Translations under genes and position numbers: made by a program
Origin: an uncultured Staphylococcaceae bacterium
GTDB taxonomy: Bacteria; Bacillota_I; Bacilli_A; RFN20; CAG-826
Reading direction: 5' to 3'
DNA: 64,000 bases
NCBI GenBank assembly: GCA_964416025.1
Contig: CAYQCJ010000002.1
Span: forward strand, 3,025 to 67,024
The notes under the pieces: model-generated
Seen by the model: only the letters and a program-made list of their open reading frames with translations
Database searches by the model: none
Told to the model about the DNA's origin: nothing
Shown: piece after piece, positions 4,351 to 43,913 of the stretch
Numbering within the stretch: position 1 is the first letter of the stretch
Layout: the number at the start of each line of letters is the position of its first letter

Positions 4351-4716
4351 TTAACCTAAAATTACTAATGAATCACCAGTATTAACATTGGCGCCTTTAG
4401 CAACATTAATAGCTTTAACTGTTCCATCAACAGGAGCAACAACTTCGTTTTCAAGCTTCATAGCTTCGATAACAACAAGTGTTTGTCCTTTTTTAACGCT
4501 ATCACCAACAGCGACAGCAACTTTGATAACACCACCACCAATTGGAGCTTTGACAGCTCTTTCTCCTCCACTTATAGTGGCTGGAGCAGCGACAGGCTTG
4601 CTCTCAACTTTAGCGGCAGGAGCAGCAGCAGGAGCAGCGACAGCAGCGCCTTCCTCAACTGGCTCTAATTCAACTTCATAAACTTTTCCATTAACAGTAA
4701 TACGGTACTTTTTCAT
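4351..4716 (-). CDS. stand-alone biotin carboxyl carrier subunit of the decarboxylase
   Basis: Ala/Pro linker followed by a biotinyl domain with the EAMKLEN attachment motif. Confidence 0.9.
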   Translation of the reverse strand: MKKYRITVNGKVYEVELEPVEEGAAVAAPAAAPAAKVESKPVAAPATISGGERAVKAPIGGGVIKVAVAVGDSVKKGQTLVVIEAMKLENEVVAPVDGTVKAINVAKGANVNTGDSLVILG

Positions 4717-4733
4717 ATATTATTTCTCCTTAA

Positions 4734-5063
4734 TTATTTGATTTCCCTAATTGAAACAACTTTAACATTCTTCTTCATATCTTCTCTTCCAACAATGCTA
4801 GCAGCAATTACTGCTACCATCATGTCTTCATCAGTAACATCTTTTAAAGCGACCTTTTCGCCGACTTTAACTTTTTTAACTTTTTTACCGAAGGTTAATC
4901 CGGTTTTTGTTTCCCACATATTAATAAGTTTAAAAATTAAAGATGTAATACCAATAATCATCAAGAGGATTGCAAAAACCACAACAATTGCAACAAGTGA
5001 ATAGATTGCTCCATCACTTAAACTAACTGTAGAATTTCCATCAAAAACATTTATAAAATTCAT
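4734..5063 (-). CDS. small single-TM subunit, OadG-like (gamma)
   Basis: A 109-aa protein with one N-terminal TM helix, in the position between the alpha and carrier subunits. I recognise no diagnostic motif. Confidence 0.5.
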   Translation of the reverse strand: MNFINVFDGNSTVSLSDGAIYSLVAIVVVFAILLMIIGITSLIFKLINMWETKTGLTFGKKVKKVKVGEKVALKDVTDEDMMVAVIAASIVGREDMKKNVKVVSIREIK

Positions 5064-5074
5064 AAATATTCCCC

Positions 5075-6472
5075 CTACTCAATGATTGAGAATTCTTGAA
5101 CAACATTCTCATCAGCCTTTTCATTAGTTTTATCTAAACCATATTTCTTGGTTAAGAATTTTTTAGCAACTTCTTCGAATAATGCGATTGAAAGGACATC
5201 TTCATCACATTTTGCTAAATCTTTATATTTTTCTTTATAAGCTTCAAATTCTGGTTTAAGTAAATCGGCAGGTCTACAAGTGATTACTTTATCATCTCCA
5301 ATAATCTTATGTTGAACTTCTGGATCAATTTTTGCAGGAGCCTTTCCATAATTTCCGTGAAGATAATCTTTAATCTCTTGAGGAACCATCTTGTATCTTT
5401 CACCAGTCAAAACATTAAGAACAGCTTGTGTTCCGACCATTTGTGATAATGGAGTAACAAGAGGTGGATAACCTAAATCTTTTCTTACCTTTGGAACTTC
5501 TTTTAAAACTTCATCATATCTATCCATAGCATTTTGTTTCTTAAGTTGGGCCATAAGGTTGGAAAGCATTCCACCAGGAACTTGATATTTTAAAATGTTT
5601 GGATTAACACTTAAAACTTTTGGATTTAATAAGCCGTTAGCAAGATATTTATCTTTTACTTTGCCTAATTCAACTGAAGCTGCATCAAGCATTTCATCAT
5701 TAAGTCCTAAATCATATTTTGTATTTTTGTATGCATAATTAAAAGCTTGTGTCGAAGGTTGAGCAGTTCCGTTACTGATTGGCGAACAAGCAGTATCGAT
5801 AATGTCAACTCCTGCTTCAATTGCTTTTTCATAAGTTAATTCAGCAATTCCACCAGTGCAGTGTCCATGTAATTCAATAGGCACTTTGACGGCTTTCTTT
5901 AATTCTGAAATTAATTTAAAGGCATCGTTTGGAAGTAAAACGCCAGCCATATCTTTGATACAGATGGAATCAACACCCATTTTCTCTACCTTTTTTGCCA
6001 GTTTAACATAATATTCAACTGTGTGAACAGGACTTGTAGTATAACTTAAAGCAATTTGACAAATTCCACCATATTTCTTGGTTGATTTAACAGCTTGCTC
6101 CAAATTTCTAACATCATTCAATGCATCAAATACACGAATAATATCAATTCCGTTCTCGATTGATTTCTTTACGAACATGTCGACAACATCATCAGCATAG
6201 TGATGATAACCCAAAATGTTTTGGCCTCTAAAAAGCATTTGTAATTTTGTATTTTTACATACAGCACGGCATTGTCTAAGTCTTTCCCATGGATCTTCAT
6301 CAAGGAATCTTAAACAAGCATCAAATGTGGCACCACCCCAAATTTCAATGGCATAGAAACCAGCATTGTCCAAATACTTAAGAGCGCTAAGAATTTCTGG
6401 TGTAGTCATACGTGTAGCAAACAACGATTGATGGCCATCACGTAAACTTGTTTCAACGACTTTTACTCCCAT
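5075..6472 (-). CDS. oadA: oxaloacetate decarboxylase alpha-type carboxyltransferase subunit (no fused biotinyl domain)
   Basis: N-terminal VETSLRDGHQSL (HMGL-like TIM barrel) plus a PYC_OADA-like C-terminal region. The 465-aa length implies the carrier is encoded separately. Confidence 0.9.
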   Translation of the reverse strand: MGVKVVETSLRDGHQSLFATRMTTPEILSALKYLDNAGFYAIEIWGGATFDACLRFLDEDPWERLRQCRAVCKNTKLQMLFRGQNILGYHHYADDVVDMFVKKSIENGIDIIRVFDALNDVRNLEQAVKSTKKYGGICQIALSYTTSPVHTVEYYVKLAKKVEKMGVDSICIKDMAGVLLPNDAFKLISELKKAVKVPIELHGHCTGGIAELTYEKAIEAGVDIIDTACSPISNGTAQPSTQAFNYAYKNTKYDLGLNDEMLDAASVELGKVKDKYLANGLLNPKVLSVNPNILKYQVPGGMLSNLMAQLKKQNAMDRYDEVLKEVPKVRKDLGYPPLVTPLSQMVGTQAVLNVLTGERYKMVPQEIKDYLHGNYGKAPAKIDPEVQHKIIGDDKVITCRPADLLKPEFEAYKEKYKDLAKCDEDVLSIALFEEVAKKFLTKKYGLDKTNEKADENVVQEFSIIE

Positions 6473-6619
6473 AATTTTTACTCCCTTTTAAACCACTTTT
6501 GAAGAACTCTAGATTAAATAAAAGCACAATAAACAAATTAGACATAACGTTATAGTTTGTTGATTAGTTTTTAGGATCTAGATTTACCTTCTTTCAATTA
6601 TGATTTGTTAACGGTTTCC

Positions 6620-6637
6620 TTAACTTTAAAAAGTTAA
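6620..6637. promoter_or_regulatory. 18-bp palindrome TTAACTTT-AA-AAAGTTAA in the oad operon leader, flanked by GTTAAC motifs; candidate operator
   Basis: Perfect 8-bp arms read directly from the sequence. There are extra GTTAAC copies at 6607-6612 and 6633-6638. The binding factor is unknown. Confidence 0.3.
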
Positions 6638-6713
6638 CGAAATCGACTTTATTGTATCATAATATACAGGTACTTTTATAGTAATTTACTCTTAAAAATT
6701 GGTTTTTTTCTCT

Positions 6714-6742
6714 ACAAAAAATAGCCAATGAAAATTGGCTAT
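6714..6742 (-). terminator. Rho-independent terminator after the Na/Pi transporter gene
   Basis: A 9-bp stem ATAGCCAAT (6721-6729) / ATTGGCTAT (6734-6742) with a GAAA loop, followed by a U-run on the minus strand. Confidence 0.75.
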
Positions 6743-6760
6743 TAATTAAGGAAAAATTAC

Positions 6761-8491
6761 TCAATATCTATCTTTCATTTTTGCAAATTTTTCTTGTTCG
6801 CTATTATCGACAGAAATTTCTTTATCATTAGCAAATAATTTACAAATATTAGAGCAGTGTGAGAAGACTCTTGAATAAGCACTCATTAAGTCAGCATAAA
6901 CTAAATCGATAAATTTAGGATTCCCAGAACGTAATTCAAGAGAAGCATTTAAGTGATCAGTCACCAGCCCTTCGAGTTGAGCAACAATCGTTCTTCTAAT
7001 TTTAATAATCTCTAAAGCTTCGTTTTTATTTCCGGTATCATAAACATCCTTAGTTTTTTCAATAATTGAAATCGCTTTATTGTTAATATCGTTGATTAAT
7101 TCTAAAGTTTTGTCGTCTAATTTTTCTTTTCTTTCGTTTAAAGTTTCAAAATAACCAATTAAACTTTCACCATAATCTCCGATTCTTTCACAATCTTTTC
7201 CGGCTCTTAACATTTCTGAATATGTTTTAAATTCACCTTCATTCAATAATCCTTTATCCGCACTAAGTAAGAAAGCATTCAACTGTCTGTCAATTTTATC
7301 AATAGAATCTTCTAATTCATGACAATATTGCCCATCTTCTTCTGAAGGTTTATTAACATAAATTCCAATAGTTTTAAATTGATCAATAACTAAACCAAGT
7401 TCTTGAAGAAGTTGTTCGTTAGCTAAATAAAGTCCAGTTGATGGGAATTCTCTCATAACTCGATTATCTAATTCTTTAATTTGAATTGGTTTCTTTTCAT
7501 TGCCTTTATCAGGAATAATAAGCGTCATTAATTTACATAACGGTTTAATAAATGGAAAAACCAAAATCGTCATCGTTACATTAAATATTAAATGGAATAA
7601 AGCGATTGTAACCATTGGGTCAAAATAGAAAGTCAATGTTTCCATATTAACAAAGTTGTTAATGTCACCTGTCCAAAATTCAAAAGCATAATTTAAACCC
7701 ATAAATAAAATGGCACCAGTTACGTTAAAGAATACGTGGAATAAAGCTAAACGTTTACTCTCTTTACTTCCACCAATTGCTGAAATTATAGCTGTTGTTG
7801 TGGTTCCGACATTGGCTCCAAGAATAACTGGAATAACTCCAAATAAACTGATAGCTCCTGGAGTAGCCATATATAAGCCTTGCATAATACCAATAACAGC
7901 GGCACTTGATTGAATAACGGCTGAAGTTGCGGTTCCAACTAATAAACCAAGCCAAGGCATATCATCTAAGCCTCTAAATAATTCCATAAAAGCAGGTTGA
8001 TCAGCTAAAGAACTTAAGTTACTCATCAACATTAAACCAAAGAATATACAACCAATTGAGAACAATAAATCACCAATATTTCTGAATTTTCTTCGTGTTG
8101 TTAAAAGTAAGATAAAGGCGCCTATAAATAATAATAAGGATAAATAACTGCTAAAAGGAATAGCAATAATAAATGAAGTGATTGTTGTACCAATATTAGC
8201 ACCAATTATTATTGCAACCGCTTGAACAAGCGTCATAAGTCCAGCCCTAACAAGTCCAATTGTTAAAGCGGTTGTTGCGCTACTTGATTGAATTACGGCA
8301 GTAAAACCACAGCCAACAAAAAGACCTAAAAATTTATTGTTAGTACATTTCGTAATTATTTTCTTAAGTTTATCTCCAGCAATTCTTTTGATAGAAGTTG
8401 ACATGAAGGAGATACCAAAAAGGAATAGACCAAGTCCACCGATAATAATCGCCCAATACGAAAATCCTAAATCAGTATCCGTTAATATCAT
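6761..8491 (-). CDS. Na/Pi cotransporter family protein with C-terminal PhoU-like domain
   Basis: A duplicated QSSSATT / QSSAAV Na_Pi_cotrans motif sits in the polytopic N-terminal half, and the C-terminal tail is a soluble helical region. Confidence 0.85.
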   Translation of the reverse strand: MILTDTDLGFSYWAIIIGGLGLFLFGISFMSTSIKRIAGDKLKKIITKCTNNKFLGLFVGCGFTAVIQSSSATTALTIGLVRAGLMTLVQAVAIIIGANIGTTITSFIIAIPFSSYLSLLLFIGAFILLLTTRRKFRNIGDLLFSIGCIFFGLMLMSNLSSLADQPAFMELFRGLDDMPWLGLLVGTATSAVIQSSAAVIGIMQGLYMATPGAISLFGVIPVILGANVGTTTTAIISAIGGSKESKRLALFHVFFNVTGAILFMGLNYAFEFWTGDINNFVNMETLTFYFDPMVTIALFHLIFNVTMTILVFPFIKPLCKLMTLIIPDKGNEKKPIQIKELDNRVMREFPSTGLYLANEQLLQELGLVIDQFKTIGIYVNKPSEEDGQYCHELEDSIDKIDRQLNAFLLSADKGLLNEGEFKTYSEMLRAGKDCERIGDYGESLIGYFETLNERKEKLDDKTLELINDINNKAISIIEKTKDVYDTGNKNEALEIIKIRRTIVAQLEGLVTDHLNASLELRSGNPKFIDLVYADLMSAYSRVFSHCSNICKLFANDKEISVDNSEQEKFAKMKDRY

Positions 8492-8629
8492 TGTCTAAAT
8501 TATAAACGATAATTGCCAATTAAAAAGAATAAAAATGAAAAATCACAAGATTTTAATGGGGTTTTAATAAGCAAAAATCCCTCACTTTTCCAAAAAGACA
8601 GGGGATTAGCAAGGGATTTTGATTTTTTA

Positions 8630-9913
8630 TTAATTATTCTCTTTATTTAAATTTTCTTTAGCAATTGCTAACATCAATTTGATTCTATTTTCTTGGTTAA
8701 CCTTTGGAGCACCTGCATCATAATCAACAGCTACGATATTTGCGCCAGTTAACTCAACAACTTTTCTGATCATGCCTTTTCCAGCAATATGGTTTGGTAA
8801 GCATCCGAATGGTTGAGTACAAACAATGTTTTTATAACCATTATGGGCTAATTCCATCATTTCAGCCGTTAATAACCAGCCTTCTCCCATTTTGTCACCA
8901 TAACCAATTACACCTTTAACAAGGCCTTTTAATTCATAATAATGCGTTGGAGCCGTATATTCTTTATGAATCGAAATTGAATCAATAAGCATATCCTCAA
9001 CTTTTAAACAGTAGTTTAATAAGGCTTTACAAACCCATTTTTTGAAAATGTTTCCACCATATAATTTAATATCTTCAAGTCGATTATCAATTTTAAAATT
9101 AACGAAACTCAATAAACCACCAAGATAAACTTCGCAATCTTCTCCATGTAAGAAATCTTCAAGCGAATTATTTCCTAAAGCAGCATATTTAACGTAAATT
9201 TCTCCAACAATTCCGACCTTGACTTTCTTGACGCTTCTATCGCAAGGAATCTTACTAAAATCATCACTAATTTTATAAAGGTTTTTCTTAATATCTTTAA
9301 ACTTATAATCTTTCCCGTGATTCAATAAATCGACTATATGATCAGTCCGTTTTTTCAATAACCCCTGCGTATCCCCCTTATTTATTTCGTAAGGTTCAGT
9401 TTGGTTCTTTAAATACATTAAAGAATCTCCATAAATTACACCAGCGACAAGTCTTCTAATCATCTTTAAAGAAATATGAAAACCAGGATTCTTTTCAAGA
9501 CCAGATAAGTTGAGTGAAAGAACAGGAACATAATCTAAATCAGCTTTCTTCAAGCCTTTTCTTAAAAGATGAATGTAGTTACTTGCTCTACAACCACCAC
9601 CAGTTTGGCTAATCATTAACGCAACTTTATGAGTGTCATATTTTCCGCTTTGAAGAGCATGAATCAATTGTCCACAACTTAAAATTGCAGGATAACAAGT
9701 ATCGTTATGAATATATTTAAGTCCAGTTTGAGCAATTTCAGGTCCTTTAGTCGTTAATAATTCAGCATGATATCCTAAATTATTAAAAATTGGTTGAAGG
9801 ATTCTAAAATGAGTTTCCATCATCATAGGAAAAAGAATTGTATAGTTCTTTTTCATGTATTTAGAAAATAATAATCTACCAGTTTTTTTATCGTATTTTA
9901 ATTCACTATTCAT
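8630..9913 (-). CDS. 2-hydroxyacyl-CoA dehydratase-like / activase-associated protein, substrate unknown
   Basis: It is paired with, and overlaps by 8 nt, the upstream double-ATPase gene. I chose the start at the internal ATG (MNSELKY) because the track ORF begins at a GTG inside the upstream gene. Confidence 0.6.
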   Translation of the reverse strand: MNSELKYDKKTGRLLFSKYMKKNYTILFPMMMETHFRILQPIFNNLGYHAELLTTKGPEIAQTGLKYIHNDTCYPAILSCGQLIHALQSGKYDTHKVALMISQTGGGCRASNYIHLLRKGLKKADLDYVPVLSLNLSGLEKNPGFHISLKMIRRLVAGVIYGDSLMYLKNQTEPYEINKGDTQGLLKKRTDHIVDLLNHGKDYKFKDIKKNLYKISDDFSKIPCDRSVKKVKVGIVGEIYVKYAALGNNSLEDFLHGEDCEVYLGGLLSFVNFKIDNRLEDIKLYGGNIFKKWVCKALLNYCLKVEDMLIDSISIHKEYTAPTHYYELKGLVKGVIGYGDKMGEGWLLTAEMMELAHNGYKNIVCTQPFGCLPNHIAGKGMIRKVVELTGANIVAVDYDAGAPKVNQENRIKLMLAIAKENLNKENN

Positions 9914-23228: not shown

Positions 23229-24530
23229 TTACTTAATTAAATTCAACCACTCACCGATTTCATTATAATCATCAATCCAGATGGTAATTAAATCGTAAGT
23301 AAAGAAATAATTTGTGACATCTTTAAAAATTTTCTCGTTAAATCCCGCTTCTTTTTTAAGAAATATAAAATTAAACTTCAAATAATTCTTTGATAATTCA
23401 AGAAGTCTTTTCATATTTGGATCAGTCATAGAGATTCCAATAAATATACAAGCATTAAAAGTAAAATCGTGCATTTGTTTAGAAATATTCCAGCTATATG
23501 GATTGTTATAAAGGTAGAAATATTCGGATTCATTAAAAATTAATGAATTGGTATATTTCTCTTCATTATATTTATCAAATGGTAATAATCCATGAACATG
23601 GAAGATGTTAACAGTTGCATCACTTGTACAAAAACTATTCGCATCGAAAACTGTGCAATATCTTAATCCTCTCTTCCTTAATAAATACTCCAAATTTGTA
23701 TCGTAATTATAAGTAATGACGCTCATTCCTGGGTGTTTTTGAATAAAATTAACACAACCGTAAAGTGTTGAATCGCAATCATTAAAGGATTTAGCTTCTT
23801 TAAATAAGTAAAGCTCGTCATGAAGATGATGATAAACCTCAAAACCGTTGGTTTTTAAAATCTTGCTAGAAACAAATAATTCATTTCCGGCATAGTGTTT
23901 AATTTCATCGATTAAGCCTTCTTCGCCTTTATAAAATTCTTTATTCATGGATTCTACAAGACCTTTCCAGTCTTTAGCTCCATAATCGCAGTTAATTCCC
24001 GCTCCCATAACCATTGTTAAAGGTAATTTTGCGGCATAAAGTCTCAATAACCACAATATAAAGGTAGAATCTTTAATCTTTCTTTTCTTGCTATCTTCGT
24101 TAAGACTATATAAAAGGTCTGGTTGATAATTTAAAGAAGTATCTTCCAAACAATATTTAACTTTCTTACCTTCTAGATAACCAATTGCTAAAAAATTAGC
24201 TTCATCAAAATAAATATTAACGGAAGATTCAGGAACATAATTTTCATAATTTTTAAGATTATTAATATGAACAATATTGATGTTTCCCATGACATCTAAT
24301 TCTTCAAGATTTACACCCCTTAAAGAATTGAAAATATGGCATGTATACTTATGAATATGCTCTTTTTCACTGATAATAATGACCTTAAAATTACAGGTCG
24401 GATCAAAGTGAAAACCAAAAGATCTAAAAGTAATATTTTGATAATCAATACCATTTAAATAGTAAAGATAAAGCAAGATTAACAAACATTTTTTGTGAAA
24501 TATATATGTTTGACTAGTTATTTTTTCCAT
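23229..24530 (-). CDS. SIR2_2-type (sirtuin-like, defence-associated NADase-type) domain protein with an unknown ~165-aa N-terminal domain
   Basis: The ordered motifs MGAGINCDYGAKDWKGL, ITYNYDTNLE, IFHVHG, LIFNESEY and IFIGISMTDPNMKRLL match the SIR2_2 pattern GAG.S..G.P.W / T.NYD..lE / hlHG / G.S..D. Confidence 0.7.
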   Translation of the reverse strand: MEKITSQTYIFHKKCLLILLYLYYLNGIDYQNITFRSFGFHFDPTCNFKVIIISEKEHIHKYTCHIFNSLRGVNLEELDVMGNINIVHINNLKNYENYVPESSVNIYFDEANFLAIGYLEGKKVKYCLEDTSLNYQPDLLYSLNEDSKKRKIKDSTFILWLLRLYAAKLPLTMVMGAGINCDYGAKDWKGLVESMNKEFYKGEEGLIDEIKHYAGNELFVSSKILKTNGFEVYHHLHDELYLFKEAKSFNDCDSTLYGCVNFIQKHPGMSVITYNYDTNLEYLLRKRGLRYCTVFDANSFCTSDATVNIFHVHGLLPFDKYNEEKYTNSLIFNESEYFYLYNNPYSWNISKQMHDFTFNACIFIGISMTDPNMKRLLELSKNYLKFNFIFLKKEAGFNEKIFKDVTNYFFTYDLITIWIDDYNEIGEWLNLIK

Positions 24531-24565
24531 AACCGTATTTTATCATAAATGTTATACTTAAAGTT

Positions 24566-26132: not shown

Positions 26133-26354
26133 AGGTAAATGCTAAAACAAAAAACCAGAAAAGGCAAGTTAATGAAATTTATACAAATTAAGAAAAGGTT
26201 GATTAAATAGTTTCGTTTGTAACAAAAAAACGGTTTGAACGAAATATAAATCGTAATTTTTACAATTTTTTAAAAAAATTTAAAAAAATATATATTAAAT
26301 AAGAATATATTATAAATAATAACATACATTAATAATATATTGGAGGTTTTTATA

Positions 26355-29300
26355 ATGAGACAAAGACGCATAAACGTATCAATAGTTACCGTATTAACTG
26401 CCGCAGCAATTGGTGCACTATTTATTACTTTTTCAAAAAATTTAATTTCGAAATACACTATCACTTTTGATACTGATGGCGGAACTAATATCGATTCCAT
26501 TCTTGGAGTTACTGGAACTTTAGTAAAAACTCCTGCTGATCCAACAAAAGAAGGCTACACATTTACTGGTTGGGTAGATAAAAATAATAAAACATACACT
26601 TTTGATACAATTCCTAATGAAAACATTACTGTTACTGCCACTTGGAAAATTAATAAATATACAATTTCTTTTGATTCAAAAGGCGGAACAAGTGTTAGCT
26701 CAATCACTCAAGATTATGCGACCACAGTTTCTGCTCCAACAGATCCTACATATTTAGGTTATACCTTTGATTTTTGGTCTTTAAAAGGCGAAACCACCCC
26801 TTACACTTTTAAAACAATGCCAAGTGAAAATATCACTTTAAATGCTAATTGGACTATCAATAGACACGACGTAACATTTATTCTTGATGGAGAAATCTAT
26901 GGATCATCCGTTAGATATAGTTTTAATGAAAGTATCGTTTTACCAACCATTACTAAAACTGGTTACACCTATGATTTATGGTACACTGATGCCGCTTATA
27001 CTAATAAGATTTCCACTGCTACCATGCAAAATGAAGACATCACTTTATATGGTAGAAGTTCGATAAATAGCTACGATGTTACCTATCACATTCCTAATAA
27101 AAACGATGTGATTAAGACTTTTAAATACAAAGAAAACGTCACTTTGACATTTGATTTTAACGAGGGTTATTCTTTCTCAGGATGGTTCGATAATTCAACC
27201 TACACCGGAACTAAATTGTCTTCTTACAAAATGCCTGCTTCAAACGTCGATTTATATGGAAAATATAACGCCAACAATTACACTATCACTTTAAATAGCG
27301 ATGGTAGCGTCTATAAAACCATCAATCAAGAATATAAATCGACAATCGAAAGTGTCGTAAATCCAACTAAAACCGGATATACATTCGCTTATTGGTACAC
27401 TACCGATATTAATACAAGTGTCGATGTACCTACAACTATGCCTTTAGGTGGATTAACTTTGAATGCCAAATTTACAGTCAATTCTCATAATTTGAATTAC
27501 TATTATGGCTCATCACTTCTTAATACAACTTCAGTAGATTATGGAGAAGTTGTTAGCTCACTTTATACACCTGATAATATTCTTGGAAAGACTTTTGCTG
27601 GTTGGTATAGCGATGCAAGTTTTGCTAACGAAGTTACCTCTATAACCATGCAAGATAGCGACTATAATCTTTACGCTAAATTTACTGATAACGTTTATAC
27701 AGTTTCTTTTGTTAACTATGATGACACTATTTTATCAACAATAAACAATCTTAGTTATGGCGACACAATTACTTATACTGGCGCAACACCAACTAGACCA
27801 AGTACCATTGGAAGCAACTATACATTCACTGGTTGGGACAATGATATTACTAGTGAAATTACTGGTGATACCACATTTAAAGCCCAATATAGCGAAGAAA
27901 TTCGTCAATATTCACTTTCATTTATGGTTGATGGAGTTTTATATAAGAAGATAATTAACGATTATCAATCTCCAATTGTTGATCCAATTGAACCTACCAA
28001 GACTGGTTATACTTTCGCTTACTGGTATTTAGGAAGCGACGACTCAATAGCAGCCACTTTACCTCCTTCAATGCCTGGAGAAAATAGAACTTACACCGCT
28101 AAATGGACTCCAATTTCCTATAGCGTTAAATTTAATAATTATGATGGTAGCGAATTACAAAGCGGAGTTGCTGATTACGATACTTACGCTACTTATAGTG
28201 GCGAAACACCAACTAAACCAGCTGATGCTGAATATACTTATACCTTTAGTGGATGGGACAATGATCCAACAGCTACTAAGATTACTGGAAATACCGTATT
28301 CACTGCTCAATTTAGTTCAGTAAAGAATCAATATTCATTTACCTTCGTTTTAGATAATGGCGATAGTGACGTTATTTACACAAGAGACTATGGAACAGCC
28401 ACTCCAACCATCACTTCACCAACAAAAACTGGTTACACATTTGCTTATTGGTATACCTCAGATCCAGCAACTTCAGTTCCTGTTCCAGGAACTATCACAA
28501 GTAATGTTACATTTACTGCTAAATGGACTATCAACTCTCACTCAGTTAATTATCATAATGGTTCAGTTTTAGCTCAAGCTTCTAAAACATGCGACTACGG
28601 TGCCAATGTTGATTTAACATTAGATCCATTAGTTACTGGTAAAACACTTGAAGGTTGGTATACCGATTCTTCATTATCAGCTGCAAGTAAAGTTTCCGCT
28701 CCATTAGTTATGGGCGATGCTGATTTAGATCTTTATGGTAAATTTACTACTAATTCTTATTCCTTAGTTTATAAATATAAAGATGCTCTTGGAACACCTC
28801 AAACACTGTCTAGCACTACCGCACTTTATGACTCAAGTGTTGATTTATCTGAGCAACCTGTCACTGGTTATGTTTTCCACGGTTGGTTTCTTGAAGAAGG
28901 TTTAGTTCATGCGGTTTCTACTTTAGCAATGCCAGCAAGCGATACCGTTCTTTATGGAAAATACGTCAAACAATACACAGTATTATTCAAGAACGGAACA
29001 GACACTCTTGAAACAGATACTGTTGAATCCGGAAACACCACAACTTATGATGGTGCTACTCCAACCAAAGCAAGCGACGCTCAATACACTTATACATTTA
29101 CTGGCTGGGATTCGGATCCATCAACCACAATAATTACGGCTGATACAACATTTACTGCTCAATTCAGTTCGACATTAAGAAGTTACACCATTACATTTGC
29201 TAATGCTAATAATGGCGAAAGCGTCACTAAAGATGTTGATTATGGAACCACTCCAACTTACACAGGAACTCCAACAAAAGCCACTTCTGGCGCTTATTCT

Positions 29301-30173
29301 TATACATTTAGTGGTTGGGATAAGACTTTAGCATCAGTTACTGGTGCCGAAACTTATACCGCTCAATTCACTGAAACTGAAGATAAGAGTTATGGTTTAA
29401 GTTATACAGCTATCGATGCTGATACTTGCTTTGTTTCGGCTTTTGATAAATCACATCCAAATGTTGAAATTCCAACTCAAATTGATGCTAATGGAGATGG
29501 CGACTTAGAAACCGTCATTGGAATCGGAGATAAAACATCTTCTGCTGGTGTATTTGCAAATAATTCGTCATTAACCTCAATAAAACTACCATCCACATTG
29601 CAATATATTGCCAGTGCTTCCTTTTCTTCAACAACAGCATTACCCAGTATTGAATTCCCTGATAGTTTACAATATGTAGGAGATTATGCTTTCTACGGAA
29701 CACATATCACCGAAATGAATTTTAAATCAAATGTCCAATATGTCGGTGGTTATGTGATAGCAGGAAGCCTAGTTGAAAAATTAACATTTGCTGATGGTGC
29801 GTTAGCGACTGAATCAGGAATTACAGACGGAGCTTTTAACTCTTCATCTTCGTTAAAATACGTAACTTTACCAAATACTTTAGCAAAATTAAGCAAAGGA
29901 ATGTTTCAAGCATGCATAGTTATGGAAAGTATAATAATTCCTAAGAGCACAAACATATCAACAGACACCAGTCAAAATTATTTTACAGGCTGCAAATTAT
30001 TGAATTATGTTTACATTGAATCAACTACATATACAGAAGCCCAAATTAATTCGTTAAAGGGCGGAATTCCTTCAACAACTACTCTTTATTATTATTCAGC
30101 CACCGAAAAAACGGATGGAAACTATTGGCATTACGATACAGTGACTGGTCTTCCAATAATTTGGGGCGCTTAA
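26355..30173 (+). CDS. large surface protein: Listeria-Bacteroides-type repeats plus C-terminal BspA-type LRR domain (paralog 1)
   Basis: GGAGG then ATG 26355, followed by a signal-anchor. By eye there are 14 GYTFxGW-type repeat motifs with a period of about 70-75 aa. The last ~280 aa show the LP..L..I...AF LRR pattern. Confidence 0.85.
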   Translation: MRQRRINVSIVTVLTAAAIGALFITFSKNLISKYTITFDTDGGTNIDSILGVTGTLVKTPADPTKEGYTFTGWVDKNNKTYTFDTIPNENITVTATWKINKYTISFDSKGGTSVSSITQDYATTVSAPTDPTYLGYTFDFWSLKGETTPYTFKTMPSENITLNANWTINRHDVTFILDGEIYGSSVRYSFNESIVLPTITKTGYTYDLWYTDAAYTNKISTATMQNEDITLYGRSSINSYDVTYHIPNKNDVIKTFKYKENVTLTFDFNEGYSFSGWFDNSTYTGTKLSSYKMPASNVDLYGKYNANNYTITLNSDGSVYKTINQEYKSTIESVVNPTKTGYTFAYWYTTDINTSVDVPTTMPLGGLTLNAKFTVNSHNLNYYYGSSLLNTTSVDYGEVVSSLYTPDNILGKTFAGWYSDASFANEVTSITMQDSDYNLYAKFTDNVYTVSFVNYDDTILSTINNLSYGDTITYTGATPTRPSTIGSNYTFTGWDNDITSEITGDTTFKAQYSEEIRQYSLSFMVDGVLYKKIINDYQSPIVDPIEPTKTGYTFAYWYLGSDDSIAATLPPSMPGENRTYTAKWTPISYSVKFNNYDGSELQSGVADYDTYATYSGETPTKPADAEYTYTFSGWDNDPTATKITGNTVFTAQFSSVKNQYSFTFVLDNGDSDVIYTRDYGTATPTITSPTKTGYTFAYWYTSDPATSVPVPGTITSNVTFTAKWTINSHSVNYHNGSVLAQASKTCDYGANVDLTLDPLVTGKTLEGWYTDSSLSAASKVSAPLVMGDADLDLYGKFTTNSYSLVYKYKDALGTPQTLSSTTALYDSSVDLSEQPVTGYVFHGWFLEEGLVHAVSTLAMPASDTVLYGKYVKQYTVLFKNGTDTLETDTVESGNTTTYDGATPTKASDAQYTYTFTGWDSDPSTTIITADTTFTAQFSSTLRSYTITFANANNGESVTKDVDYGTTPTYTGTPTKATSGAYSYTFSGWDKTLASVTGAETYTAQFTETEDKSYGLSYTAIDADTCFVSAFDKSHPNVEIPTQIDANGDGDLETVIGIGDKTSSAGVFANNSSLTSIKLPSTLQYIASASFSSTTALPSIEFPDSLQYVGDYAFYGTHITEMNFKSNVQYVGGYVIAGSLVEKLTFADGALATESGITDGAFNSSSSLKYVTLPNTLAKLSKGMFQACIVMESIIIPKSTNISTDTSQNYFTGCKLLNYVYIESTTYTEAQINSLKGGIPSTTTLYYYSATEKTDGNYWHYDTVTGLPIIWGA

Positions 30174-30561: not shown

Positions 30562-33500
30562 ATGAAACAAAGAAAAATTAATGTTGTAATTACTACAGTA
30601 TTAGCTGCTGCTGGCGTTTCTTCTTTATTTATCGTTTCTGGAAAAGACTTAATTGCGAAATATAATATTACATTTGATAGTCAAGACGGAACAAATGTTG
30701 ATTCTATTGTTGGTGTAACTGGTTCGCTTGTAAGTGCTCCGGCCAATCCAACAAAAGAAGGTTATACTTTTACCGGTTGGGTTGATGAAAATAATAAACC
30801 ATTCTCTTTTGATACAATGCCTGGAAAAGACACCACTATCACCGCAACTTGGAAAATTAACCAATACACCATTTCTTTTGATTCTAAAGGTGGAAGTTCT
30901 GTTAGTTCGATCACTCAAGACTATGGATCGACTATAAATCCACCAGCATCTCCAACATTTACTGGTTACACTTTTAATTATTGGTTCTTGGACGGAGAAA
31001 CTAAGCCTTATACTTTTTCTACAATGCCTGCTAAAAACATCACTCTTTCGGCTGATTGGACAATCAATAGACATAATGTTAAATTTATCGTTGATGGCGA
31101 AGAATATCGTACTGATCGATATAATTTTAACGAATCTATTGTTTTGCCTACATTAACAAAAACTGGTTATACATATGATTTATGGTACACAGACAGCACC
31201 TTTATTACTAAGATTTCTGCTGCTACAATGCAAAATCAAGACATTACTTTGTATGGTAGAAGTTTAATAAATAGCTATGATGTCACTTATCATATTCCTG
31301 GAAAAGAAGATAAAGTCCAAAGTTATGAATATAATTCAACAGTAGATTTGACCTTTGATTTTAATCAAGGATACACTTTTAACGGTTGGTTTACGACCCA
31401 AGACTATAGCGGCTCAAAATTATCAAATTATAAGATGCCTGCTAATAATATCAATTTATATGGAAAATATATTCCAAACACTTATTCGATGACTTTTATT
31501 AGTGATGGCAACACCTATAAAACCATTGAAAAATCATATAAAGAAACAATCGGAACAGTTGTTGACCCAATCAAGGTTGGCTATACTTTTGATTATTGGT
31601 ATACAAACGACATCAATACCCAAGTTGATATTCCTACAACTATGCCTTTAGGCGGATTAACTTTAACTGCTAAATACACAATTCATTCTCATGCTCTCAA
31701 TTATTATGTTGATGGGGAGATTGCTTATACTCAAAATTTGGATTATAACGAAACTCTTGATGCTTTATATACTCCTAATTATCAAGTAGGCAAAACATTT
31801 GTCGGTTGGTATAAAGAAGATGGTTTATTAAATGAAACAACTTCAATTACAATGGTAGATGAAGACATTAATCTTTATGCGAAATTTACAGATAATAAAT
31901 ATATTGTAAAATTTCTAAATTATAATAATACCGAAATATCAACCATCAATGATGTTGCCTACGGAAGTACAGTAACTTTCACCGGCTCCACTCCTACTAA
32001 ACCAAGTGATACTGGAAATGACTATACCTTTAGTGGATGGGACGAAGATATTACTTCTCCAATTTTCGGAAATACTACTTTCATTGCTCAATTTAACTCT
32101 TCAATACGTCAATATACAATGAACTTTGTTGTTGACGGAACAACATACAAAACAATTATTAATGACTACCAATCCCCAATTGTTGATCCAACTACACCAA
32201 CAAAGACTGGTTATACATTTGCTTATTGGTATCTTGGTGATGATGATTCAATTGCCGCTACTCTTCCTGTCACAATGCCAGGAGAAAACAGAACTTACAC
32301 CGCAAAATGGAATGCAAATAAGCATTCAGTCACCTATATTGGTGATACCACAACCACATTAGAAAATGTTGAATATGGTACATCTATAAATCTCGACCCT
32401 TTAACAAAAACTGGTTACACCTTTGATGGCTGGTATAAAGAAGCCGCTTATACAAACAAGGTTACTAGTATGACTATGCCAGACAATAATATAACCCTAT
32501 ATGCAAAATTTACAATTAATTCTCACTCTTTAATATATAAATATAAAGATATAAACGGAACTTTACAAACCATCGAAACAACCAATTTAAATTACAATGC
32601 TTCAATCGATTTAACTGAAAAATCTGTTACTGGATATTCGTTTAAAGGATGGTATACCGATGAAGCCTTAACTCAAAATGTGACTACTATGAATATGCCA
32701 GATTTAAACACAATTCTTTACGGAAAATATGTCAAACAATACACTGTTACGTTTAATAATGGCACCGAAACCTTAGCAACCGAAACAGTTGATTCTGGTG
32801 AATTAGCAACTTACACCGGAGCAACTCCAAGCAAAGCAAGCACAACTGAATTAGTATATACTTTTGATGGATGGGATAAAGACCTTAATACTTTACAAAT
32901 TACCGCCGATACAGTATTTACAGCTAAATTCAGTTCATCAGTAAGAAAATATACTATAACTTTTGCAAATGCAAATAATGGTGAAAATGTCACAAAAGAT
33001 GTCCCATACGGAACTCTTCCAACATATGATGGTGTTCCTACAAAAGCAAATTCAGGCGCTACTACTTATACATTTACCGGTTGGGACAAAACAATAGTAA
33101 ATGTTGCTGGAGAAGAAACTTATACAGCGCAATTTAGCGAATCAGAAGATAAGAGTTATGGTCTTAGATACATTGCTATCGATGCTGATACTTGTTACGT
33201 TTATAGTTTTGATAAATCTCACACTAATGTCGTTATTCCTTCAATGTTTGATGTTGACTACGATGGCGATAAAGAAACTGTTGTCAGTCTCGGCAAAGAG
33301 GGAATAAGCGGTTCCCCTATATTTAGTAATTCGAGCGTTACCTCGGTTTCTCTCCCTAATACCATAAAATATATTAGTGATTGGACTTTTGGTAACACAA
33401 CTTCTTTAACTACGCTTCAACTTCCTGACAATTTAGAATATGTTGGCGATAAAGCATTCTACGGAACAGGAATTAAATCATTAGAATTCAAAAAGAAACT

Positions 33501-33945
33501 TCAATTTATTGGTAAATATGTTTTTGATAATAGCAGTATAGAAACCCTCACATTTGAAGATGGAGCGTTAGCAAGTTCATCTGGTATTTCAGAATATGCT
33601 TTTTACTATACTAATCATTTAACAAAAGTAGTTTTACCAAATACCTTTGCTTGTTTAAGTGATCGTATATTCGGTAGTTGCAAAGCATTAACATCAATAA
33701 TAATTCCAGCAATTACGGATATAAATAATACCGATGGATATCAAGGATCGTATTTTAGTTCTTGTTCTGCTTTAACTCACATCTACATTGAATCCACTAC
33801 TTACACTTCAACTCAAATTACAAACTTGTTATATAATTCTAATTCTATTACAAAACTTTATTATTATTCAGCCACCGAAAAAACTGATGGAAACTATTGG
33901 CATTACGATACATTGACTGGTCTTCCAGTAGTCTGGGGCGCTTAA
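30562..33945 (+). CDS. large surface protein: Listeria-Bacteroides-type repeats plus C-terminal BspA-type LRR domain (paralog 2)
   Basis: Same architecture as paralog 1, with 12 repeat motifs by eye. Its N- and C-termini are collinear with paralog 1. Confidence 0.85.
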   Translation: MKQRKINVVITTVLAAAGVSSLFIVSGKDLIAKYNITFDSQDGTNVDSIVGVTGSLVSAPANPTKEGYTFTGWVDENNKPFSFDTMPGKDTTITATWKINQYTISFDSKGGSSVSSITQDYGSTINPPASPTFTGYTFNYWFLDGETKPYTFSTMPAKNITLSADWTINRHNVKFIVDGEEYRTDRYNFNESIVLPTLTKTGYTYDLWYTDSTFITKISAATMQNQDITLYGRSLINSYDVTYHIPGKEDKVQSYEYNSTVDLTFDFNQGYTFNGWFTTQDYSGSKLSNYKMPANNINLYGKYIPNTYSMTFISDGNTYKTIEKSYKETIGTVVDPIKVGYTFDYWYTNDINTQVDIPTTMPLGGLTLTAKYTIHSHALNYYVDGEIAYTQNLDYNETLDALYTPNYQVGKTFVGWYKEDGLLNETTSITMVDEDINLYAKFTDNKYIVKFLNYNNTEISTINDVAYGSTVTFTGSTPTKPSDTGNDYTFSGWDEDITSPIFGNTTFIAQFNSSIRQYTMNFVVDGTTYKTIINDYQSPIVDPTTPTKTGYTFAYWYLGDDDSIAATLPVTMPGENRTYTAKWNANKHSVTYIGDTTTTLENVEYGTSINLDPLTKTGYTFDGWYKEAAYTNKVTSMTMPDNNITLYAKFTINSHSLIYKYKDINGTLQTIETTNLNYNASIDLTEKSVTGYSFKGWYTDEALTQNVTTMNMPDLNTILYGKYVKQYTVTFNNGTETLATETVDSGELATYTGATPSKASTTELVYTFDGWDKDLNTLQITADTVFTAKFSSSVRKYTITFANANNGENVTKDVPYGTLPTYDGVPTKANSGATTYTFTGWDKTIVNVAGEETYTAQFSESEDKSYGLRYIAIDADTCYVYSFDKSHTNVVIPSMFDVDYDGDKETVVSLGKEGISGSPIFSNSSVTSVSLPNTIKYISDWTFGNTTSLTTLQLPDNLEYVGDKAFYGTGIKSLEFKKKLQFIGKYVFDNSSIETLTFEDGALASSSGISEYAFYYTNHLTKVVLPNTFACLSDRIFGSCKALTSIIIPAITDINNTDGYQGSYFSSCSALTHIYIESTTYTSTQITNLLYNSNSITKLYYYSATEKTDGNYWHYDTLTGLPVVWGA

Positions 33946-35612: not shown

Positions 35613-35698
35613 TGGTGCGAGTAGGGGGACTTGAACCCCCATGCTGTGAGGCATAAGATTCTAAGTCTTACGTGTATACCAGTTTCACCATACTCGCA
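35613..35698 (-). tRNA. tRNA-Leu (anticodon UAG), long variable arm, encoded CCA
   Basis: Hand-folded: acceptor TGCGAGT/ACTCGCA, anticodon stem TAAGA/TCTTA with loop CTTAGAA, T-arm GGGGG-TTCAAGT-CCCCC. Confidence 0.9.
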
Positions 35699-43649: not shown

Positions 43650-43725
43650 TGGTGCCTTCTGCCGGACTCGGACCAGCCACCTACTGATTACAAATCAGTT
43701 GCTCTACCAGATGAGCTAAGAAGGC
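43650..43725 (-). tRNA. tRNA-Thr (anticodon UGU), encoded CCA, unusual T-loop UCCGAGU
   Basis: Hand-folded: acceptor GCCTTCT/AGAAGGC, anticodon stem ACTGA/TCAGT with loop TTTGTAA, T-stem GCTGG/CCGGC. Confidence 0.85.
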
Positions 43726-43732
43726 AAGTGAT

Positions 43733-43807
43733 TGGTGGGCGCTATAAGGATCGGACTTATGACCTCTTCCGTGTGAAGGAAGCGCTCTCCCGCTGAGCTA
43801 AGCGCCC
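43733..43807 (-). tRNA. tRNA-Val (anticodon CAC), encoded CCA, unusual T-loop UCCGAUC
   Basis: Hand-folded: acceptor GGGCGCT/AGCGCCC, anticodon stem CTTCC/GGAAG with loop TTCACAC, T-stem ATAAG/CTTAT. Confidence 0.8.
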
Positions 43808-43836
43808 AAGCGTCATTTGTAATATTTGTTGTCATA

Positions 43837-43913
43837 TGGTGGGCCTTAATGGACTTGAACCATCGACCTCGCCCTTATCAGGGGCGCGCTCTAACCAACT
43901 GAGCTAAAGGCCC
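43837..43913 (-). tRNA. tRNA-Ile (anticodon GAU), encoded CCA
   Basis: GGGCCTTTAGCTCAGTTGGTTAGAGCGCGCCCCTGATAAGGGCGAGGTC.. with a canonical T-loop TTCAAGT. Confidence 0.9.

Follow-up and report, generated by a model that had tools for sequence, protein, structure and literature searches.

Is the SIR2 gene found in a gut bacterium of the GTDB lineage RFN20 a travelling antiphage module, or a gene that the lineage keeps as its own? The gene in question is a minus-strand open reading frame (ORF) with an ATG start, located in a stretch of 64,000 nucleotides (the whole stretch analysed, called the window here) of contig CAYQCJ010000002.1 from an uncultured Staphylococcaceae bacterium. According to the ORF listing it encodes 433 amino acids (aa) plus a stop codon: an N-terminal region of about 165 aa and a C-terminal SIR2_2 domain. 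A preliminary description of this DNA had presented it as a candidate stand-alone, accessory gene for defence by depletion of nicotinamide adenine dinucleotide (NAD+). Compared with its relatives, it proves to be a chromosomal gene that RFN20-type gut Bacilli conserve, inherit vertically and keep under strong constraint, and not an accessory one.

The C-terminal SIR2_2 domain

The five motifs quoted in the preliminary description are all present in the 433-aa translation: the glycine loop MGAGINCDYGAKDWKGL, ITYNYDTNLE, IFHVHG, LIFNESEY (residues 330-337) and IFIGISMTDPNMKRLL. Pfam places SIR2_2 (PF13289) over residues 270-382, with 47.1 bits versus a gathering cut-off of 24.5 (E=3.3e-12), and this domain is present in every listed homologue. 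The canonical sirtuin family PF02146 gives no match at E<=0.1 and residues 166-433 contain no CxxC pairs, so there is no Zn-binding Cys4 module; because of these two absences, the protein is not a deacylase-type sirtuin. No deacylase is found within the top 50 Foldseek matches. NCBIfam shows no match to the 433-aa protein, and PADLOC shows only a weak match to ThsA (ThsA1, 24 bits), in the SIR2 part and at model positions 104-274 of 478.

The protein was modelled with AlphaFold2 from 27 family members, which gave a predicted local distance difference test (pLDDT) of 76 and a predicted template modelling score (pTM) of 0.78, with moderate confidence in two loops of the SIR2 part, residues 218-228 and 329-350. 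Foldseek matches the model to ThsA, KomC, DSR2 and SIR2-HerA, each with probability 1.00 and with E from 3e-11 to 3e-7: ThsA 8bto shows an E of 3e-11, DSR2 ranges from 3e-9 to 1e-7, and KomC 8zsf has the highest target-normalised template modelling score (TM-score) to the SIR2 core, 0.68. Two alignments were used for profiles: A1 contains only the family and A3 contains the family plus its nearest outgroup, which are uncharacterised proteins of about 450-490 aa with a different N-terminal domain (P0130-P0269). Searches of PDB with the single sequence and with the family-only profile gave nothing useful, and only the family-plus-outgroup profile reached ThsA. The A3 profile matches BcThsA (4.7e-14), EcThsA (3.4e-13), human FAM118B (5e-13), KomC (1.3e-12) and DSR2 (2.5e-8), and much more weakly SIR2-HerA and SIR2-APAZ/short prokaryotic Argonaute (pAgo) proteins (E 0.007-0.008).

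The profile column of N275 aligns with N112 of BcThsA (TTN112YD) and that of H313 with H152 (KMH152G), as the preliminary description had expected for the catalytic Asn and His. Neither residue varies among the 27 sequences of the family and the 34 of the outgroup, and G365, D370 and R375 of IFIGISMTDPNMKRLL are likewise invariant across family and outgroup. In ThsA, N112A abolishes NADase activity and Thoeris defence, and H152A abolishes NAD+ cleavage (PMC7272460). Because N275, H313 and the NAD-loop residues are invariant and aligned with ThsA, the C-terminal domain is apparently a catalytically competent immune-type SIR2. Its assignment to SIR2_2, outside the deacetylase clade, is borne out by the Pfam match above cut-off, the ThsA-class fold and the lack of a PF02146 match.

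Distribution and mode of evolution

A word-indexed search retrieves at least 120 full-length proteins of 414-448 aa and 58-88% identity, and an exhaustive search of 50%-identity representatives shows a single full-length cluster, followed by a gap down to 35% identity or less. With one genome taken for each GTDB species, at least 116 species carry a full-length orthologue (56-89% identity), which is a count of carriers and not a prevalence within RFN20. The carriers include Candidatus Onthovivens, Clostridium sp. CAG:288 and Candidatus Enterosoma, which belongs to the GTDB order RFN20, family CAG-288 (PMC8035907). For this lineage, the NCBI taxonomy goes no further than 'Caryophanales incertae sedis'. 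Carriers titled Bacteroides, Roseburia and others are evidently bin mislabels, since the EF-Tu genes next to SIR2 share about 87% identity.

The loci of 80 of the 116 species were fetched as a context sample (labelled L001 and so on), and their ORFs were called and clustered with our own simple scripts. The orthologues are intact in all 80 loci, save copies cut by contig ends, and a search of 50,697 phage and 72,556 plasmid records shows no close homologue. In species with tuf adjoining the gene, the pairwise identities of SIR2 and EF-Tu are correlated (Spearman 0.90, 231 pairs), and the synteny classes coincide with the SIR2 sequence clades. Mean pairwise identity is 87.5% for EF-Tu, 84% for EF-G, 72% for SIR2, 43-45% for the esterase and the Trx-like lipoprotein, and 31% for the adjacent RDD proteins.

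The ratio of nonsynonymous to synonymous substitution (dN/dS) was calculated by the Nei-Gojobori method between the window and its closest relative, L008, which is collinear with it from about 15.2 to 35.5 kb. At a dS of about 1.2, near saturation, only the ranking of the values is reliable: 0.031 for the uridine kinase, 0.047 for Band_7, 0.061 for the whole SIR2 gene, 0.062 for DegV, 0.16 for the esterase and 0.29 for the Trx-like lipoprotein. Within the SIR2 gene, the value is 0.083 for the N-terminal domain and 0.049 for the SIR2 domain.

A GC-rich member of the lineage (L085, positions 8001-9272) shows an intact orthologue at 56% identity, overlapped by a longer spurious ORF; the protein is thus conserved across large base-composition shifts.

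The N-terminal domain

The preliminary description could not match the first 165 residues to any known sensor. They form a confidently modelled domain, for which Pfam, PDB, viral-fold and profile searches reveal no relative. The AlphaFold2 model of residues 1-168 (pLDDT 85.8, pTM 0.83) shows a long helix (residues 3-25), followed by a seven-stranded beta region and two helices. Mean column identity in the family is 61%, with 28 invariant positions, ten of them polar: D43(D/E), H60, K61, Y62, D79, N85, N105, Y107, D109 and E120. The domain has no match in Pfam, NCBIfam, PADLOC or PDB sequences, and Foldseek shows nothing significant in PDB (best E 0.06) or BFVD (best E 0.011). Its comparison with the outgroup N-terminal domains gives an hhalign probability of 0.1%. 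When 5.8 billion proteins were searched with the profile of the domain, the matches listed were limited to 12 truncated family members, without any of the full-length ones (more than 120), and the domain never appeared on another effector. Because this search omitted the full-length members, the specificity of the domain to the family rests also on the exhaustive search of 50%-identity representatives.

Two other views of the domain were discarded. The short proteins that seem to contain only the N-terminal domain do not form an architecture of their own: each of them reads on into the GAG motif and results from a truncation, a frameshift or a contig end. A degenerate PD-(D/E)xK nuclease, a fold suspected for the outgroup proteins, had been considered since MAFFT aligned D43 with the aspartate of the outgroup 'FD' motif and the strand order looked compatible; against it stand the hhalign probability given above, the lack of Foldseek matches with E<0.01 in PDB or BFVD, and nuclease-like matches only at E>0.19.

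Possible function of the gene product

Since the gene is not accessory but vertically inherited, constrained and linked to RDD-family genes, we read it as a lineage-fixed NADase switch that is gated by the N-terminal domain and answers to a conserved cue. We hold this reading tentatively, giving it slightly less than an even chance. The protein would be a cytoplasmic two-domain enzyme, with the family-unique domain of 165 aa fused to a SIR2 domain of the ThsA/DSR2 type. By analogy with the characterised bacterial members of the class, the SIR2 domain would cleave NAD+. The N-terminal domain would keep the enzyme off until the cue is bound, and the subsequent loss of NAD+ would arrest growth. 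In most carriers, SIR2 is the gene nearest to the promoter in a unit that also encodes two RDD-family membrane proteins. The cue could come from the host side or from the envelope, the models being guard-type immunity and stress-triggered dormancy, rather than from a fast-evolving phage protein.

Several points count against such a switch. NADase activity and gating are predicted from homology, at 14-19% identity to the solved structures. The fixation of a self-intoxicating NADase throughout an order would be unusual for defence. The constraint on the N-terminal domain almost reaches that on the catalytic one, which makes a non-immune role just as compatible with the evolutionary data. The linkage to RDD genes may be mere operon packing, as these genes are multi-copy, fast-evolving and absent from the 64-kb window. 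The near saturation of dS and the nature of the 116 species as a plain count of carriers, both given above, belong here too.

The best-placed alternative, which we consider possible but somewhat behind the gated switch, is domestication. The RFN20 ancestor would have taken an immune-type SIR2 into service as a non-immune enzyme with an endogenous task, in parallel to FAM118 of vertebrates. The proposed tasks are, for example, NAD+/ADP-ribose turnover or signalling, ADP-ribosylation and deacylation of a host target, and the N-terminal domain would bind an endogenous metabolite or partner. Vertebrate FAM118A/B are non-canonical sirtuins derived from antiphage SIR2 proteins (PMC12700824), and the A3 profile matches human FAM118B at 5e-13. 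The core-gene profile of the family also fits domestication, with vertical descent, a dN/dS of about 0.06 for either domain and a gene that is intact throughout the 80 loci, and so do its housekeeping neighbours without defence enrichment. The N-terminal domain has never been shuffled onto other effectors, and its ten invariant polar residues suggest a fixed small-molecule or partner site. To our knowledge, however, all characterised bacterial members of the immune-type SIR2 clade are antiphage NADases. The clade as a whole is enriched near defence systems and is treated as immune (Bonhomme et al., bioRxiv 10.1101/2024.09.18.613514). Furthermore, no NAD-salvage, macro-domain or Nudix gene is consistently adjacent to SIR2, and no result points to a substrate.

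We consider a more specific version possible, but less likely than not: a single capture of a ThsA-like SIR2 by the RFN20 ancestor, its fusion with a newly evolved N-terminal domain that binds a ligand or partner, and its retention for a physiological, non-defence role. This role might be, for example, growth control or signalling by NAD+/ADP-ribose, and the co-transcribed RDD proteins might link it to the envelope.

Genomic context and the RDD pair

The 80 loci show more than 10 alternative contexts upstream of SIR2. The retrieved contexts include rpsL-rpsG-fusA-tuf followed by SIR2; a HAD hydrolase, SIR2 and psuG-psuK; and the window type, with an esterase, SIR2 and lipoprotein-NfeD-Band_7. 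The recurrent neighbour clusters contain RDD proteins, an ABC transporter, tuf/fusA, the esterase and the lipoprotein. In 42 of the 76 informative loci SIR2 is directly followed by two genes encoding RDD-family membrane proteins: RDD-A (cluster 3, about 386 aa) and RDD-B (cluster 2, about 333 aa; PF06271, E 1.2e-11). The spacing between the stop of SIR2 and the start of RDD-A is -56 to +5 nt in most cases, with -4, -19, 0 and +1 nt among the values. The RDD genes are within three genes of SIR2 in 14 further loci, some of them inverted, and 20 loci show none nearby. Most of these 20 fall in three sequence-coherent clades, one of which is formed by the window and L008. The gene had been called stand-alone, which does not describe most of its relatives, where SIR2 overlaps the start of the two downstream RDD-family genes.

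This arrangement leads to another possibility, a three-gene membrane-linked system in which the two RDD proteins would be the sensor or anchor of SIR2 and the window copy would be an orphan whose partners were lost or relocated. The order SIR2>RDD-A>RDD-B, adjacent with overlapping stop and start in 42 loci and near in 14 more while the upstream side varies, speaks for it, as does the Pfam match of RDD-B. Nevertheless, we regard it as improbable: the clades without RDD genes, that of the window included, keep SIR2 equally conserved; hidden Markov models (HMMs) of RDD-A, RDD-B and the cluster-8 surface protein match nothing in the six-frame ORFs of the 64-kb window; and the RDD proteins evolve much faster (31% versus 63% identity) and have extra copies without SIR2, which fits variable envelope proteins that share an operon. 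RDD partners hidden elsewhere in the window were discarded on the same HMM search.

Examples of loci with the RDD pair are L005 (9310-11473), L011 (6957-9094) and L035 (9299-11423). Downstream of the pair there is a gene for a surface or membrane protein of about 510 aa and then an ABC sugar-type transporter, and further tandem copies of the pair occur with no SIR2 gene beside them. In the Onthovivens-type clade (L009, L012, L013, L017, L018 and L026) a divergent gene of 135 aa (cluster 23) is located upstream of SIR2. By eye only, without a family search, it looks like an ArsR-type helix-turn-helix regulator, and its spacer to SIR2 contains a perfect palindrome, GTTGAACAATTGTTCAAC, about 40-90 nt upstream of SIR2, which is presumably the operator of this regulator.

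Defence genes near SIR2

PADLOC was run on representatives of the 144 neighbour clusters (four genes on each side, 80 species), with the top 25 families listed and 46 single-member families beyond this list. Defence or candidate-defence genes adjoin SIR2 in about three of the 80 loci: L059 shows a 1100-aa type IIG/PglX-like enzyme (4630-7932, E 1.5e-262) immediately upstream of SIR2, L052 has a PDC-S01 candidate (6449-7831, E 1.7e-115) inserted between tuf and SIR2, and L087 has PDC-S27 (5528-6910) immediately upstream. Unrelated small insertions are found at the same tuf-SIR2 junction in L036, L049 and L077, and the junction suggests a local insertion hotspot. The matches of neighbours to mad3 and mad8 were rejected as generic ATPase cross-matches: those checked cover only part of the model, and one is a transporter ABC ATPase. 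AriA is the other multi-member PADLOC match among the neighbours. The few proteins with strong matches also include the product of a TnpB-like gene of the IS605 family type, three genes downstream of SIR2 in several Onthovivens-type loci (L013 12389-13642, L021 4467-5729), which matches Cas12f/Cas12u PADLOC models at 1e-27.

The genes of known partners are not found. HerA ATPase, short pAgo and KomA/KomB are absent near the window gene, in the recurrent clusters and in the top 25 PADLOC families listed, and TIR/ThsB has no match among the window neighbours and none in the recurrent neighbour clusters of the 80 loci. The preliminary description had likewise reported no adjacent partner. PADLOC gives nothing for the neighbours of the window gene. 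Among all 61 window ORFs, it matches PDC-M37B (5e-40), dCTPase (1.7e-33), DolB (3.7e-32) and AbiLi (1.6e-7, two proteins); the matching proteins may be housekeeping homologues such as a dCTP deaminase-type enzyme.

As a like-for-like control, 80 metagenomic loci of the nearest outgroup, with its different N-terminal domain and 30-35% identity in SIR2, were compared. Their neighbours comprise 425 genes in 333 clusters, versus about 560 genes in 144 clusters in the family, and the genes within two positions of SIR2 match 169 PADLOC families, including mREase_IV (type IV restriction, 7.5e-212), the S subunit of a type I system, the reverse transcriptase DRT UG5, LmuB and IetS. The outgroup behaves as defence-island cargo and the window family does not. 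The location of the outgroup in defence islands fits an origin of the window family from the immune SIR2 pool. The window family itself is an exception to the enrichment near defence systems reported for the clade, with essentially no such enrichment over the 80 species-level loci.

The idea that the gene is an accessory one, which moves horizontally and depletes NAD+ on its own from the border of a variable island, is favoured by the immune-type domain class, by the restriction, DRT, LmuB and IetS genes around the closest outgroup and by the neighbours in L059, L052 and L087. It is very improbable: the gene region is collinear with its closest relatives on both sides and has a normal base composition (G+C 0.29, similar to the surroundings), and its place at the left border of an accessory block is not confirmed; all fetched relatives have the gene in intact form, and it diverges in step with EF-Tu; its neighbours (tuf/fusA, psuG/psuK, ABC transporters, RDD) fall into few clusters; and close phage or plasmid homologues are lacking. 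From the proposed sensor-SIR2 single-gene system there remain, by homology, the SIR2_2 NADase class, the unmatched N-terminal domain and the lack of a known partner, while its accessory, mobile character is lost.

Comparison with known systems

Of the known systems, Thoeris ThsA (PDB 6lhx, 8bto, 8wc0), a SIR2-SLOG NADase, comes closest to the SIR2 domain of the family in fold and profile. Both contain the GAG loop, the catalytic Asn and His, the TDP motif and the C-terminal helix pattern, and they would share the logic of a second domain gating the NADase. The order is reversed, with the domain in the sensor position at the N-terminus and SIR2 at the C-terminus in the family. Unlike ThsA, the family protein shows no SLOG/STALD domain (no SLOG match in Pfam) and no ThsB/TIR gene nearby, and its gene is vertically fixed while ThsA is patchy. 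DSR1 and DSR2 are, like the family protein, single polypeptides with a sensor and a SIR2_2 NADase. The DSR proteins have about 1000 aa or more and a large C-terminal repeat sensor that binds the phage tail tube protein (PMC11263360), whereas the family proteins have 428-448 aa (433 in the window) and a small N-terminal domain of unrelated fold, and the match to DSR2 covers only about 300 columns.

The solved chains of KomC/HAM-SIR2 (KomBC filaments; PDB 8zsf, 9v0g) have 264-278 aa, and their match is confined to the SIR2 region (profile positions 168-409). The PDB entries pair KomC with a separate KomB and deoxyinosine triphosphate (dITP), and no such partner gene is conserved beside the family. 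SIR2-HerA (Nezha) and SIR2-APAZ/short pAgo (SPARSA) belong to the same SIR2 class but, unlike the family, they require an adjacent HerA ATPase or short Argonaute. The nearest relatives in sequence are the outgroup proteins P0130-P0269, with an 'FD...ExK' N-terminal domain before SIR2_2. They show a similar length and the same invariant residues (G176, G178, N275, D277, E281, H311 and H313), but an unrelated N-terminal domain and hypervariable, defence-rich contexts on many unrelated metagenomic contigs. FAM118 offers a precedent for an immune-type SIR2 turned into a conserved lineage-specific host gene; unlike the family, it is eukaryotic and has no equivalent of the N-terminal domain.

All characterised bacterial SIR2_2 examples that we know of are patchy, mobile and paired with swappable sensors. 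The family departs from this pattern: it has the same catalytic core as immune SIR2_2 proteins, yet it is vertically inherited and constrained in at least 116 species. Should it serve in defence, it would represent a rare abortive-infection immunity that is 'core' to a whole order and has a conserved trigger, probably one that guards the host. Otherwise, it would show that bacteria, too, can domesticate antiphage sirtuins, as the first bacterial example and a parallel to vertebrate FAM118. In either case, it offers a concrete protein of 433 aa for the study of orphan-domain gating of a SIR2 NADase.

The locus in the window

Features of the SIR2 gene and their positions in the window
Feature	Position	Strand	Basis
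Complete gene, orphan N-terminal domain followed by SIR2_2 domain	23229..24530	-	ORF listing; full-length homologues share the start
C-terminal SIR2_2 domain (ThsA/DSR2-type, 'SIRim'), residues 166-433	23232..24035	-	Pfam PF13289, Foldseek, profile search
IFIGISMTDPNMKRLL, residues 362-377, conserved G-x-S-x-x-D-P motif of SIR2_2	23400..23447	-	Aligns with ThsA FVGFSFTDPNL
IFHVHG, residues 309-314	23589..23606	-	H313 predicted catalytic His; H311, G314 invariant
ITYNYDTNLE, residues 272-281	23688..23717	-	N275 predicted catalytic Asn; D277, E281 invariant
NAD-binding glycine loop MGAGINCDYGAKDWKGL, residues 175-191	23958..24008	-	G176, G178 invariant (A1, A3); aligns with ThsA GAGLS loop
N-terminal domain, residues 1-165	24036..24530	-	AlphaFold2 model, invariant columns
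Promoter-like extended -10 element TGATAAAAT	24537..24545	-	Read from the sequence; ends 6 nt before the ATG

The neighbours are those named in the preliminary description, a lipoprotein gene and a divergent esterase gene, as confirmed by the ORF listing and Pfam. The downstream lipoprotein gene (248 aa) is on the same strand at 37 bp, with no terminator-like site between the two genes in the window, and the upstream gene, at 35 bp, encodes an esterase of the BD-FAE/Abhydrolase_3 type (Pfam). The 35 bp between the divergent starts of the SIR2 and esterase genes (24531-24565) correspond to 34 bp in L008. With a spacer of only this length, the promoters must overlap each other or the neighbouring coding sequence. 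The element TGATAAAAT is also present in L008 and, if it is the promoter, a very short or absent leader would be expected; a generic promoter scan did not call it, the promoter being our reading of the sequence. In the tuf-adjacent orthologues, the tuf terminator is followed by a TATAAT-like box and then by the SIR2 gene. An upstream regulatory leader or riboswitch was discarded, as the gaps (median 94 nt) show only terminators, -10 boxes and Shine-Dalgarno sites, although no Rfam search was run.

On the plus strand, 26340-30173 and 30562-33945 encode two giant paralogous surface proteins of 1277 and 1127 aa. The 1277-aa protein shows a hydrophobic N-terminal segment at its start and repeats of about 70 aa. 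In L001, from an 88%-related genome, this region is broken into several short ORFs with Flg_new and LRR_5. What had been described as an accessory block looks like hypervariable surface-protein genes and not like a mobile element. ARAGORN predicts an 86-nt tRNA-Thr(GGT) on the minus strand at 32121-32206, within and antisense to the 1127-aa ORF, which is probably a false positive. The real-looking tRNA genes of the window are at 35613-35697 (Leu) and 43650-43913 (Thr, Val and Ile).

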